From NCBI GenBank assembly GCA_963709385.1, contig CAVPWD010000012.1, forward strand, positions 336,989-400,988: a stretch of 64,000 nt of DNA. Reading direction: 5' to 3'. The notes under the pieces are model-generated. The model saw only the letters and a program-made list of their open reading frames with translations, was not told the origin of the DNA and did not search any database. Of this stretch, positions 36,481-42,429 are shown one piece after another (positions within the stretch are counted from its first letter, which is position 1; each line of letters begins with the position of its first letter). The stretch comes from an uncultured Acidobacteriaceae bacterium. Lineage in GTDB: Bacteria; Acidobacteriota; Terriglobia; Terriglobales; Acidobacteriaceae. Both the position numbers and the translations under genes were made by a program.

Positions 36481-36984
36481 TTACGGAAGGACTACTTCCT
36501 TCAACCTTCCCGTCTTCACGTCATACACAAATCCCCGCACCGGAATATGTTTCGGGATCCAGGGGTGCGATTTCACGCGCTGCATCTGAAGGCGAACGTT
36601 CGCTTCTAGATCGTCGAAGGCGTGGAAATGCGCGGGCTCGGCCGCGGGCGCTCCCATCTTTTCGGTCAGGCGCGCTTTCAGTTCGTCTTCGCGCACCTTC
36701 AGCAGGCCGCAGTCGGTGTGGTTGATGATGATGAATTCCTGGGTGTCGAGCAGATGATGGGAGACGATGAGGGAGCGCAGGGCGTCGTCGGTGGCGATGC
36801 CGCCGGCGTTGCGAATCATGTGGGCGTCGCCGGGATGCAGGCCGAGACAGTGCTCGAACAGGATGCGGGAATCCATGCAGGCGAGCACGGCGACGTGGCG
36901 GCGCGGGCGGACGGAGAGATCTCCCAGCGTGAAATTGCGGGCGAAGGTTTCGTTGGCTTGTAAGAGTTCGTCGGCTACGGACAA
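36481..36984 (-). CDS. beta-class carbonic anhydrase
   Basis: Zinc ligand motifs CMDSR and HTDCG. TTG start preceded by AGGAG. Confidence 0.85.
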   Translation of the reverse strand: MSVADELLQANETFARNFTLGDLSVRPRRHVAVLACMDSRILFEHCLGLHPGDAHMIRNAGGIATDDALRSLIVSHHLLDTQEFIIINHTDCGLLKVREDELKARLTEKMGAPAAEPAHFHAFDDLEANVRLQMQRVKSHPWIPKHIPVRGFVYDVKTGRLKEVVLP

Positions 36985-37001
36985 GAAGTGCTCCTAGGGA
37001 A

Positions 37002-37147
37002 GTCGTTGGTCGTTCGTCGTTGGCCGTTAGCCAAACACTTTCAGTGTTCGTGAAAATCCCCACGTCTCGCAAAGGACGCTAGACATGGGGCACCCAGCCG
37101 TTGGTTTGCCAACGACCAACGACCGACGACCAACGACCTGTGACCAG
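37002..37147. repeat. composite element: inverted GTCGTTG-type heptamer arrays flanking a REP hairpin
   Basis: GTCGTTG GTCGTTC GTCGTTG GCCGTTA (37003-30), then AACACTTTCAGTGTT, then the AAAATCCCCACGTCTCGCAAAGGACGCTAGACATGGGGCACCC unit (37053-95), then CCAACGA CCAACGA CCGACGA CCAACGA (37109-36). Confidence 0.75.
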
Positions 37148-37161
37148 TTTACAATCGGCGC

Positions 37162-38613
37162 GTGAATCTGGACGACACCATTGTCGCGATTGCCACACCC
37201 ACAGGGCGGGGAGGGATTGGAGTGGTGCGGCTGGCGGGACCTGCGGCGCGAGAGATCGTTGCGCCTATGCTGCGGCTGCGGCATGAACTGGAGGCGGGGC
37301 GGGCGGTGTTGGGGGAGTTGGTTGAGCCGGAGGTTTCCGCTTCAGTGCAAGAAGTCAAAATCCCCACCCCTTCGGCAAGCTCAGGGCAGGCTCTCTTTCG
37401 CGAAGAACGCGAAAGAAGGATGGGGCACCCGCAGCATCGGATCGACGAGGTGGTCGTCACTTATTTTTCCAAGCCACATTCTTATACGACCGACGACATT
37501 GTCGAAATTTCGGCGCATGGGGCGCCGGTGGTGTTGCGGCATATTGTGGAGCTTTGCGTGGCGGCGGGGGCGCGGCTGGCGGAGCCGGGCGAGTTCACCA
37601 TGCGTGCGTTTCTGAACGGGCGCATCGATCTTACGCAGGCGGAGGCGGTGCGCGATCTGATCGATTCGCAGACGTTGTATCAGGCGAAAGTCGCGGCGCA
37701 GCAACTGGAAGGCGCGCTGTCGCGGCGGTTGCAGCCGATCAAGAAAACGCTGGTGGAGCTGATTGCGGTGCTCGAAGCCGGGATTGATTTTGCCGAAGAC
37801 GACGTGTTGGTGATGGCGGACGCCGCGATTCTTGATCACATTGCTTCCGTTCGTAAACCCCTAGAGCAGCTGAACGCCACATTTGCTTACGGCAAGATCG
37901 TGCATGAAGGCTTGACTCTGGCAATTGTGGGGCGGCCGAACGTTGGGAAGTCGAGCCTGTTTAACCGGTTGGTGGAGCGGGAACGGGTGATCGTCACCGC
38001 GACTCCGGGGACCACGCGCGATTTGGTGAGCGAGACGGTCGCGATTGGCGGGATCCCGGTCAAGCTGATCGACACAGCCGGCATTCGCGAGGCGCTCGAT
38101 GAGGCGGAGTCGATCGGGATTCGCAAATCAAAGGAGGCGCTGGCCGACGCAGACCTGGTGTTGGTCGTGCTCGACGCATCGCAACCGGAGACGGCGGACG
38201 ATGCGGAACTGCAGCGGCTGGCTGAGGGCCGGCCGGCGATTGTCGTGGGAAACAAGTGCGACTTGGGAAGCAGTGGACAGTGGACAGGGGCCAGTGGTCA
38301 GAAGGTTCTTACTTCAGCGATCACTGGCGCGGGCATGGCCGAACTTCGCGAAGCCATTCTGCGACACATTGGTGGTGAGGCGGGAGCGCCGGCGGAGTCT
38401 GGTTTTCTGACCAGCGTTCGCCATCAGGGATTGATCAACGATTCGATGGCTGCGCTGGATGCGGCAAAGGTTGCGGTGACGGGGAAGATTCCGCACGAGA
38501 TGCTGCTGCTCGATCTTTACAACGCGCTGCGGCCGCTGGATGCGATCACGGGGGCGACTACCACAGACGATATTCTGAATTTGATTTTCAGCACGTTCTG
38601 CATCGGGAAATAG
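37162..38613 (+). CDS. mnmE: tRNA modification GTPase MnmE
   Basis: N-terminal [20 protein letters not shown] domain [18 protein letters not shown] and NKCD. C-terminal CIGK. Confidence 0.95.
37357..37430 (+). repeat. REP-like hairpin element embedded in frame in mnmE
   Basis: AAAATCCCCACC...CTTTCGCG-AAGAA-CGCGAAAG...GGATGGGGCACCC has the same termini as the intergenic units at 37053-95 and 42334-76. It encodes [25 protein letters not shown]. Confidence 0.65.
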
Positions 38614-40555: not shown

Positions 40556-42327
40556 CGCGCATCCTCGGGCTCGTGGTCGGAACGGCGGCGCTCGCTGCGC
40601 AGAATTCCAAGCCCGTCACCTTCAATCGCGATATTGCCCCGATCATTTTTCGTTCCTGCTCGACGTGTCACCGGCCGGGTGAGGCTGCGCCGTTTTCTCT
40701 TCTGACGTATTCCGACGTGAAAAAGCACGCGCGGCAGATTGCGGAAGTGACGCGGTCGCGGGCTATGCCGCCGTGGCTCCCCGAGCCGCAGGCCCTGAAG
40801 TTTGCCGACGAACTGCGCCTGCCAGAAGCCGAAATCGAGCGAATCGAGCGCTGGGTCGAGCAGGGAGCGGTCGAGGGCGACGCCGGCGATCTGCCCGCGC
40901 AGCCGAAATTTGTGGAAGGCTGGCGCCTCGGGAAACCGGACATGGTGCTCACGGCGACTAAGCCGCTTACGCTTCCGCCGCAGGGCACGGACACCTATTG
41001 GAACTTTATTTTCCCTGTGCCGATTCAAGAAACCCGCTGGGTGAAGGCCGTCGAGATTCGTCCGGGCGATAAGCGCTACGTGCACCACGCCAACATTCTG
41101 GTCGATCGCTCCGGCGCATCGCGCAAGCGCGAAGCCGAGCCGGGCGCTGGTTTCGGTGGCATGGAGATTCGCATCGAATCGCAGGTGTTCGATCCCGATA
41201 GCCATCTTCTCTTCTGGAAGCCGGGGACAGTTCCTTACGTTGAGCCGGAAGGAATGGCGCTAAGGCTCGATAAAGGAACTGATTTGATTCTTAACACGCA
41301 CCTGCAGCCATCGGGGAAGCCGGAGGTGATCCAGCCGAGCATTGGACTCTACTTCACGCCGCAGGCCGCGACGAAACTCCCCATGCTCCTGCAGCTCGAA
41401 AATGATTTGAAGCTCGATATTCCGGCCGGGGATGGGGATTTTCTAGTCACCGATGACTTCGCGCTGCCGGTTGATGTAGATCTGATCGCGATCTATCCGC
41501 ATGCACATTATCTGGGGAAGGATATTCAGGCGTTCGCGACATTTCCTGACGGCACGAAGACAACGCTGATTCACATTCCGCAATGGAATCTGAACTGGCA
41601 GGCGGTGTATCGCTATGCGGAGCCGGTGCGGCTGCCGAAGGGGACGACAGTGAGTTTGCGCTACACCTACGACAACTCGGCGGAGAATCCGCTGAACCCG
41701 AATCATCCTCCGGTGCGGGTGGTGGCCGGGAACCGGTCGAGCGACGAGATGTGCCACCTGTGGCTGCAGGTGCTGCCAGTGAATTTCGACCCCGCGGACG
41801 GCGATCCGCGGATGGCGCTGCAGGAAGCGTTGGCGCGGCGTGATGTGGAGAAAAATCCTGCCGACTTTGAAGCGCATTACAACCTGGCCGCGATGCTGCA
41901 GGCGAAAGACAAGCTGGAGGCGGCGATCGGCGAATACGAATCGGCAGTGCATTTGCGGCCAGCGGATGCGGCCGCGAACAATGCTCTTGGAGCGGCGCTG
42001 GTGGCGGCGGGGCGTCCCGAGCAAGGAGTCGGATATTTGCAGACCGCGTTGAAGGCGCGGCCGGACTATTTCGAGGCTCACTACAATCTTGGCCTGGTGC
42101 TGGCCGGCCAGAGCCAATTCCAAGAAGCCGCTCAACAATTTACATTCGCGTTGCAATTGCAGCCGCAGGATGCCAACGTGGAGGCCAACCTGGGAGCTGC
42201 GCTGGCGGAGATGGGAAGATTTGCGGAAGCGAAGGCGCACTTCGAGCATGCGTTGCAGCTCGATCCTGAGCAGCCCATTGCGAAAGAGAATCTGGAAATG
42301 GTGAAGAAGGAAATGGGGGCGCACTAG
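40552..42327 (+). CDS. protein with CxxCH heme-binding motif, copper type II monooxygenase-like domain and C-terminal TPRs
   Basis: ATGA overlap with the upstream gene. CSTCH motif in a planctomycete-cytochrome-like segment. His-rich beta-sandwich segment (YVHHANILV, IYPHAHYLG). The TPRs start around residue 440. Confidence 0.65.
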   Translation: MTRILGLVVGTAALAAQNSKPVTFNRDIAPIIFRSCSTCHRPGEAAPFSLLTYSDVKKHARQIAEVTRSRAMPPWLPEPQALKFADELRLPEAEIERIERWVEQGAVEGDAGDLPAQPKFVEGWRLGKPDMVLTATKPLTLPPQGTDTYWNFIFPVPIQETRWVKAVEIRPGDKRYVHHANILVDRSGASRKREAEPGAGFGGMEIRIESQVFDPDSHLLFWKPGTVPYVEPEGMALRLDKGTDLILNTHLQPSGKPEVIQPSIGLYFTPQAATKLPMLLQLENDLKLDIPAGDGDFLVTDDFALPVDVDLIAIYPHAHYLGKDIQAFATFPDGTKTTLIHIPQWNLNWQAVYRYAEPVRLPKGTTVSLRYTYDNSAENPLNPNHPPVRVVAGNRSSDEMCHLWLQVLPVNFDPADGDPRMALQEALARRDVEKNPADFEAHYNLAAMLQAKDKLEAAIGEYESAVHLRPADAAANNALGAALVAAGRPEQGVGYLQTALKARPDYFEAHYNLGLVLAGQSQFQEAAQQFTFALQLQPQDANVEANLGAALAEMGRFAEAKAHFEHALQLDPEQPIAKENLEMVKKEMGAH

Positions 42328-42333
42328 AAGATC

Positions 42334-42376
42334 AAAATCCCCACGTCTCGCAAAGGACGCGAGACATGGGGCACCC
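42334..42376 (+). repeat. REP-like hairpin unit (AAAATCCCCACGTCTCGC-AAAGGAC-GCGAGACATGGGGCACCC)
   Basis: Differs at one position from the copy at 37053-37095. It sits 7 nt after the stop of the upstream gene. Confidence 0.7.
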
Positions 42377-42429
42377 GTAGTGCTGTGAGACTCCAAGACC
42401 CGCTCGGTTTTTATGCTTTAATCCACGGT

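Follow-up and report, generated by a model that had tools for sequence, protein, structure and literature searches.

We analyzed a stretch of 64,000 nucleotides (G000:C12:336989-400988; this whole stretch is called the window) from an uncultured Acidobacteriaceae bacterium. In it, mnmE, the gene of the tRNA modification GTPase MnmE, carries within its reading frame a short palindromic insert that resembles two 43-nt units located between genes of the same window. The evidence supports the view that the insert is an in-frame copy of a repetitive extragenic palindromic (REP) element. The source genome (G000) is a draft metagenome-assembled genome (MAG) of 5.16 Mb in 25 contigs, with a completeness of 77.6%; its nearest relatives are soil and peat MAGs recorded as Candidatus Sulfotelmatobacter, Acidobacteriaceae, or Terriglobales. 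The repeat family comprising the mnmE insert and the two intergenic units was named family A. The features of the locus are as follows:

37053-37095, plus strand: short-form intergenic copy of family A, ending 66 nt before the mnmE start (nhmmer E = 3.9e-8)
37162-38613, plus strand: mnmE, tRNA modification GTPase MnmE, GTG start, 483 aa (open reading frame [ORF] list)
37353-37432, plus strand: in-frame long-form REP copy of family A, core at 37360-37430; boundaries from flank conservation, aligned with 33 other long forms
37357-37367, plus strand: left terminus AAAATCCCCAC, with the outer 5' stem arm CCCCA at 37362-37366 (from the fold); 119 genomic copies
37369-37392, plus strand: 24-nt module CCTTCGGCAAGCTCAGGGCAGGCT (PSASSGQA in the mnmE frame), located between the outer stem and the inner stem
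37394-37416, plus strand: inner hairpin TCTTTCGCG-AAGAA-CGCGAAAGA, with a 9-bp perfect stem and a 5-nt loop (repeat search)
37420-37430, plus strand: right terminus ATGGGGCACCC, with the outer 3' stem arm TGGGG at 37421-37425; 239 genomic copies
42334-42376, plus strand: short-form intergenic copy of family A, between a 598-aa ORF ending at 42327 and an ORF starting at 42385 (nhmmer E = 3.7e-9)

MnmE and its insert

The product of mnmE matched the MnmE/TrmE chains 1xzp, 3geh, 9hip, and 3gee of the PDB with phmmer E values of 1e-72 to 1e-86 (best E = 2e-86). Its AlphaFold2 model, calculated from a 40-sequence alignment, resembled 1xzp and 9hip with Foldseek template modeling (TM) scores of 0.70 to 0.78. 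The protein has the domains of its class, an N-terminal tetrahydrofolate-binding domain and a helical domain into which a G domain is inserted. The C-terminal C(I/L/V)GK motif is present as FCIGK and, like the motifs of the G domain, is intact as read from the ORF. No second mnmE was detected in the genome.

Alignment to MnmE of Thermotoga maritima revealed where the protein is extended. Residues 3 to 53 aligned with residues 32 to 82 of the T. maritima chain, and residues 93 to 483 aligned with residues 88 to 482 (phmmer), leaving 39 residues at a site where the Thermotoga protein has 5. In the AlphaFold2 model (mean predicted local distance difference test [pLDDT] score of 80), the insert was located between the strands formed by residues 48 to 54 and 93 to 102 of the N-terminal domain. 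The pLDDT was 49 to 55 across residues 61 to 90 and 83 to 94 in the flanks. According to this model, the insertion site would be a permissive β-hairpin loop of the N-terminal domain.

At the DNA level, the insert starts 195 nt into mnmE, in frame. Its stretch from 37357 to 37430 has AAAATCCCCAC as first letters and ATGGGGCACCC as last letters, and the conserved family-A edges, an (A)GTCAAAA leader and a trailing RG, extend the copy to approximately 37353-37432. In the mnmE frame it reads as 25 residues with a V and a Q at the edges, corresponding to approximately 26 extra amino acids. The arms of the inner hairpin (37394-37402 and 37408-37416) are 100% complementary, and the whole element folds as RNA at -26.8 kcal/mol. 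A scan of positions 36800 to 37700 against Rfam revealed no matching family; there was a single sub-threshold chance match (E = 0.59). Like most of family A, the element itself contains no stop codon in any frame: 72% of the family-A copies, but 7.9% of shuffled sequences, were stop-free in all six frames. Since the net length is divisible by three and stops are lacking, the mnmE frame stayed open, and this conservation of the open frame suggests that the insert is translated.

The insert is composite, because it consists of a REP hairpin of the CTCTTTCGC subfamily and a 24-nt module that is repeated separately. Short relatives without the module were also found (e.g., G000:C16:102222-102268, ATCCCCACCCTCTTTCGC...GCGAAAGAAGGATGGGGCACCC; compare the CTCTTTCGC subfamily).

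An earlier note on this DNA, made by a model from the letters and a list of ORFs, had described extra residues in the N-terminal domain of MnmE, a perfect inner hairpin, and the distances of the upstream unit and of the insert from the mnmE start. All of these descriptions agree with the results given above. The note placed the element at 37357-37430; this location was correct, but flank conservation makes the element slightly wider.

A REP family with a candidate transposase

The terminal 11-mers AAAATCCCCAC and ATGGGGCACCC occurred 119 and 239 times, respectively, in the 5.16-Mb genome, while simple arithmetic predicts approximately 2.5 occurrences. In the window, a pattern search with the termini of the insert returned two matches, which were the two intergenic units (0.00 expected from 100 shuffles). 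When left and right termini no more than 200 nt apart were paired, 136 elements were obtained genome-wide. Most of them were 40 to 45 nt long (short form), and approximately 40 were 60 to 74 nt long (long form). With nhmmer profiles of both forms, approximately 306 loci were detected.

The membership of the mnmE insert was assessed with a leave-one-out nhmmer profile built from the 33 other long-form copies. Searched against the whole genome, this profile matched the mnmE copy over 68 of its 68 positions (E = 2.5e-14), and the copy aligned in full length with the other long forms. These sequence matches support the conclusion that the mnmE insert truly belongs to the REP-type family of both intergenic units and lies in frame. 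Thus, the proposal of the earlier note that the insert has the termini of the units at 37053-37095 and 42334-42376 and is their longer relative was borne out, the insert being one of the approximately 40 long forms. The two doubts that the note had attached to this proposal, that the likeness of the termini could vanish against the genome-wide background and that orthologues without the repeat family could have the same insert, were dispelled by the above-mentioned terminus counts and by the sister family described below. Its question about copy number was answered by the approximately 306 loci, of which 64 lie inside predicted ORFs, with 21 confirmed in-frame copies.

The consensus of family A is ATCCCCA-C-TTCTCGC(GC)-loop-(GC)GCGAGAA-A-TGGGGCACCC. 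In the short form, the A-rich loop is closed by an inner stem (TTCTCGC(GC)/(GC)GCGAGAA) and an outer stem (CCCCA/TGGGG), with single mismatches between the two. In the long form, the two stems additionally have the module CCTTCGRC..GCTCAGGGCAGGCT between them. The module core CTCAGGGCAGGC has 178 genomic occurrences at no more than one mismatch. Family A accounts for 85 of them; the rest, as far as listed, are mostly contained in hairpins of other repeat families.

Nested arrangements were seen repeatedly. The 24-nt module was nested in several unrelated hairpin families (CCCCA..TGGGG, GGACAGCC..GGCTGTCC, and GCGAGATC..GGGATGACGCC), and in one relative (L085, PSASSGQAP) a different repeat that occupies the MnmE loop also contains it. 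The intergenic copy at 37053-37095 is itself nested in the loop of a GTCGTTG-type heptamer-run palindrome located within 37002-37147, the arms of which (37002-37037 and 37102-37137) are 83% complementary.

The genomic context of the copies was determined with a crude self-trained gene caller, which predicted 4198 genes (82% coverage). These calls place 225 of the 306 loci in intergenic regions. Convergent gene pairs enclose 61 copies and divergent pairs 28, although each of the two contexts occurs 706 times in the background. Furthermore, the genome contains five loci with a Y1_Tnp domain (PF01797). One of them (G000:C2:14862-15434, 191 aa) reached 90.1 bits with the model NF047646, "REP-associated tyrosine transposase" (RAYT; cut-off, 80), and has the HUH motif (PEHVHLL) and the tyrosine motif (YMHRNPV). 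Four family-A copies are located within 500 nt of this gene, on both sides, and the other four Y1_Tnp loci have none in their vicinity. In two relatives (G005 and G014), homologues of this RAYT (62 to 69% identical) also have family-A copies nearby.

The taxonomic distribution was analyzed by searching for the exact termini in 24 genomes of the genus and 16 genomes of the sister family, with the reversed pattern as a control. Family A was detected in 23 of the 24 genus genomes, at 1 to 86 copies (132 in G000), and in none of the 16 sister-family genomes; the reversed pattern had no match. Homologues of the G000 RAYT were present in 21 of the 24 and in 1 of the 16 genomes, respectively.

In summary, family A is a short imperfect palindrome with tens to hundreds of copies, it is mostly extragenic with an enrichment at convergent gene ends, and its copies flank a RAYT gene. 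Because of this copy number, this extragenic bias, and the flanked RAYT, we conclude that family A is a REP with a candidate cognate RAYT. The latter is probably the enzyme that mobilizes the family.

Two RAYT homologues are themselves associated with the repeat. The homologue of G014 (L153:1423-2205, minus strand, corresponding to G014:C143) bears an in-frame family-A copy (PLSIEIPTSRAKGAREMGHPAESH) between its HUH and tyrosine motifs, and in G005 a family-A copy lies between the two halves of the RAYT open frame. A simple dosage relationship between REP and RAYT was considered and rejected, since copy number and RAYT-orthologue identity were unmatched across the genus.

MnmE loops of relatives and other carrier proteins

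For comparison, 106 related mnmE genes were extracted. Among the genus and its neighbors, the loop was 3 to 57 residues long; in the sister family, 4 of the 6 genomes examined had a 5-residue loop. All but one of the 106 genes were open from end to end, the exception (L099) having a frame break elsewhere in the gene. Frames split in two or three outside the variable loop were seen in L022, L023, L024, and L099 (G006, G022, G015, and one MAG; G006, G015, and G022 are outside the 106 genes). These splits could be assembly or sequencing errors or real pseudogenes.

At 13 loci, family A was found at the same loop position and in the same frame (..K/E-[IV]PT...MGHP..); one of them, L069, also carries the 24-nt module. 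The loops of other relatives hold different palindromic sequences. That of G016 (AELRSAGQPGAAVPT type) has at least 46 matches elsewhere in its own genome, and that of G018 is a 168-nt palindrome (-98 kcal/mol), the arms of which have at least 88 matches in its own genome. Altogether, at least three verified, unrelated repeat families occupy the MnmE loop across the related genes, always in frame. At least two to three further recurring loop types (HVGTAAPGCPAERSSA; CGADTPVR...GVSAPHE; VSSFQSPVSS) are candidate repeats only.

In an MnmE tree calculated without the loop, which is weakly resolved, close relatives have different loop families, and the carriers of family A do not form one clean clade. 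A single vertical origin of the family-A loop is thus not supported by this tree, the tips of which are poorly resolved.

The orthologous family-A copies were folded one by one, as the MAFFT alignment was out of register for stems of unequal length. All 12 folded copies keep a hairpin, with 14 bp in the best-preserved one and z-scores down to -8.9. Their inner stems differ (CTAGCCGC/GCGGCTAG, CTAACCGC/GCGGTTAG, TCTCGCGC/GCGCGAGA, and CTCTTTCGCG/CGCGAAAGAG), and the same stem variants are multi-copy subfamilies elsewhere in these genomes. Therefore, the differences point to re-insertion or gene conversion and not to compensatory evolution in place.

MnmE is not the only protein affected in G000. 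Of the 64 family-A loci inside predicted ORFs, 28 were excluded as likely start-codon artefacts, because they lie no more than 50 codons from the predicted start or no more than 20 from the stop. For 18 proteins among the remaining 36 loci, in addition to MnmE, Pfam homology flanks or spans the element. Hence, at least 19 proteins harbor 21 in-frame copies including that of MnmE, corresponding to approximately 7% of family A. The carriers identified by Pfam are the following:

Translation and tRNA modification: GlyQ, TilS, QueA (three copies), SelB, MiaB
DNA repair and RNA processing: UvrA, MutL, RNase R
Metabolism and envelope: PhzF, Mur ligase, PurL, E1 dehydrogenase, NDH-2, GT2 glycosyltransferase, PBP
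Others: alpha/beta-hydrolase, MFS transporter, BadF-type ATPase
G000:C3:69354-70685 (L053), minus strand: queA, 442 aa, against a Pfam model of 322 positions

QueA contains its three in-frame copies at residues 75 to 96, 185 to 200, and 346 to 369. In the relatives, the third copy is cleanly absent and the second is mostly absent. Five relatives have an empty site (...CAGCAG GGCGTG GGAGAA...) where queA of G000 contains a long-form element with a net gain of 69 nt.

The sense orientation was found in 17 of the 21 confirmed intragenic copies, whereas intergenic copies between genes of the same direction had no orientation bias (66 versus 70). The peptides read from the sense frames are hydrophilic; those of the antisense frames are rich in Cys, Phe, and Trp.

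In a plain tally, the affected proteins lean toward tRNA modification or translation and DNA repair, possibly including RecN and LigD, and these categories echo those reported by Di Nocera et al. in 2013. Ambiguous loci, which lie near an ORF end or have one-sided homology or a poor coding score, are not counted as confirmed intragenic copies; among them are an aldehyde-dehydrogenase "fusion" (L048), ABC-F (L034 and L037), GAF (L036), PDDEXK (L033), LigD (L054), SLT (L051), and M20 (L046).

Origin of the insert and comparison with known systems

Taken together, these data make it very likely that a mobile REP, probably driven by a RAYT, entered a permissive loop of MnmE, and that selection kept those outcomes that were in frame, stop-free, and hydrophilic and could be translated as a disordered loop. 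According to this explanation, a copy of the family would have landed in the codons of the N-terminal β-hairpin loop, the spread being probably due to a RAYT-type HUH tyrosine transposase that acts on hairpins of single-stranded DNA. Purifying selection would then act as a filter, which in-frame, stop-free, and hydrophilic insertions would survive. The element would be read as a floppy, hydrophilic loop of approximately 26 residues, which the protein tolerates. The insertion is most plausibly selfish or neutral DNA under a purifying filter and not an adaptation, although its neutrality is inferred.

Several observations weigh against this explanation. The flank consensus of family A (agtgAAAATCCCCAC ... 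ATGGGGCACCCGG) contains no invariant GTAG/CGTC tag; CGTC was seen only within the stem variant ACGTCTCGC. The organization in inverted doublets (REPINs) was not found: among 32 neighboring pairs no more than 300 nt apart, 28 were direct and 4 were inverted. In addition, copy number does not track the identity of the RAYT orthologue, as G003 and G007 have orthologues that are 83 to 93% identical and only 2 to 6 copies. The genome-wide intragenic and intergenic counts are approximate, because they depend on our own crude gene calls. For mnmE itself, no clean empty site was found among the relatives compared, since the flanking loop sequence also differs between them. Finally, the orthologous copies of the mnmE loop have perfect hairpins with differing stems, which would not be expected if one insertion had been followed by strictly neutral change.

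A possible but tentative extension is that a hairpin in coding DNA serves as a landing pad, that is, as a preferred target for further hairpin-specific insertion or gene conversion. REP families and subfamilies without relation to each other would then repeatedly take each other's place or nest at the same codons, and transposases would drive the diversification of the MnmE loop throughout the genus and of loops in other genes for tRNA modification and DNA repair. This idea is in line with the nested structures, with the differing loop families of close relatives, and with stems that match different genomic subfamilies. Fitting examples of nesting are the module inside family A in mnmE and the family-A copy inside the heptamer palindrome upstream. 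In a third example (L009 of G010), a reverse-complement match of the module is located inside an apparent family E, which itself lies between outer arms.

Co-option of the hairpin or the peptide was also considered. The stem-loop could have a regulatory role in mRNA or DNA (ribosome pausing, RNase protection, or supercoiling), or the loop could modulate dimerization or the interaction with MnmG, and the element would be kept by selection. The retention of the hairpin in 12 of the 12 folded orthologous copies despite differing inner stems would be in line with this, and so would the sense bias of the intragenic copies, which is lacking in the intergenic ones. However, the sense bias is equally well explained by the hydrophilic sense-frame peptides, and since the stem variants are multi-copy REP subfamilies, replacement or gene conversion accounts for the seemingly compensatory changes without selection at this site. 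Furthermore, the sequence, length (3 to 57 aa), and repeat family of the loop vary between close relatives, some of which are almost loopless; the confidence of AlphaFold2 in the segment is low; and there was no Rfam match. We therefore regard co-option as unlikely.

Even less probable is that MnmE is not made as one protein, be it that mnmE is a pseudogene, that the repeat was misplaced in the MAG, or that the start codon in use lies downstream of the element. Repeats are typical places for assembly errors, and the genome is an incomplete 25-contig draft, but the element is located in a 954-kb contig with unique sequence on both sides, and independent assemblies of 12 other species have family A at the corresponding position and in the same frame. 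The 54 residues upstream of the insert are conserved (73 to 89% identical in genus members without the element) and also align with residues 32 to 82 of T. maritima MnmE. There is also no second mnmE in the genome.

A chance or convergent likeness to the intergenic units, with the loop being an old, lineage-specific low-complexity expansion, is effectively refuted: many relatives have a variable, partly palindromic loop, and the VSASVQE flanking the element is also extra compared to the shortest loops, but the mnmE copy has a full-length profile match (E = 2.5e-14), shares the 24-nt module with approximately 85 other copies, and has identical 11-mers at both termini, and the repeat is absent from the sister family, the loops of which are short.

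For the annotation of peat and soil Acidobacteriota, it is relevant that the REP-derived peptides IPTSRAKNAREMGHP, SPLLAKDARNGAP, and PSASSGQA recur inside many conserved proteins. Such peptides can pass for lineage-specific domains, split alignments, and mislead the calling of start codons and ORFs. With approximately 7% of the copies in at least 19 proteins, family A also indicates that RAYT-linked invasion of coding sequence by REPs is not limited to Rickettsia or Proteobacteria. The MnmE loop, in approximately 100 species, represents a natural experiment on the tolerance of peptides and on hairpin repeats that target earlier hairpins.

In-frame palindromes in housekeeping genes were first described for the Rickettsia palindromic elements (RPEs; Ogata et al. 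2000), according to two later accounts (PMC3733652, PMC3184786). As described there, RPEs are, like family A, short multi-copy palindromes, a fraction of which lies in frame in conserved housekeeping genes, leaving them unbroken and being read as an extra peptide; some genes have several insertions. As in an RPE-like insertion, family A resides inside conserved ORFs with a net length that is a multiple of three, without a stop, and with homology on both sides (mnmE and at least 18 further proteins). A clean empty site was found for queA. For mnmE, where the sister family has 5-residue loops and genus members have other loop content, no exact one was found. The systems differ in size, with 40 to 75 nt for family A and approximately 105 to 146 nt for RPE-1, and by inspection their sequences are not related. 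They differ also in their hosts, since family A belongs to a free-living soil acidobacterium with a 5-Mb genome and RPEs to intracellular bacteria with reduced genomes. Moreover, family A has a candidate RAYT, and the decorated proteins described here are predicted from their genes.

Intragenic REPs of the GTAG/CGTC type were catalogued by Di Nocera, De Gregorio, and Rocco in 2013 (PMC3733652), who found them in DNA-repair genes (uvrA) and in genes for tRNA synthetases and tRNA modification; in recB of Xanthomonas, different REPs occur at about the same site (PMC3733652). Such fusions were reviewed by Delihas in 2011 (PMC3184786). Similar to these REPs, family A is mostly intergenic, downstream of genes or at convergent ends, with a minority in frame, and it is found in the same gene categories (UvrA, MutL, GlyQ, MnmE, QueA, TilS, and MiaB). 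In contrast to them, it is untagged, belongs to another phylum, and has a nested composite architecture. The re-use of one site is also larger here, with at least three verified families in one loop among approximately 100 species.

REP-RAYT systems (REPtrons and REPINs) of Escherichia, Pseudomonas, and Stenotrophomonas have reportedly been described by Nunvar in 2010 and by Bertels and Rainey in 2011. Family A resembles REPtrons in having a single-copy RAYT (NF047646 equivalog with HUH and tyrosine motifs) flanked by REPs, hundreds of hairpins, and genus specificity (PMC3184786, PMC8049555). It differs in that the copies are mostly singletons or direct pairs and not inverted REPIN doublets, in the lack of the GTAG tag, and in a much larger share of copies in coding sequences. 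A text search of the literature for RAYT and Acidobacteria returned nothing that describes family A. We conclude that the phenomenon as such is already known from Rickettsia and from intragenic REPs. New are the untagged, RAYT-linked family of the Acidobacteriota, its nested composite architecture, and a protein loop that is re-occupied by several repeat families throughout a genus.

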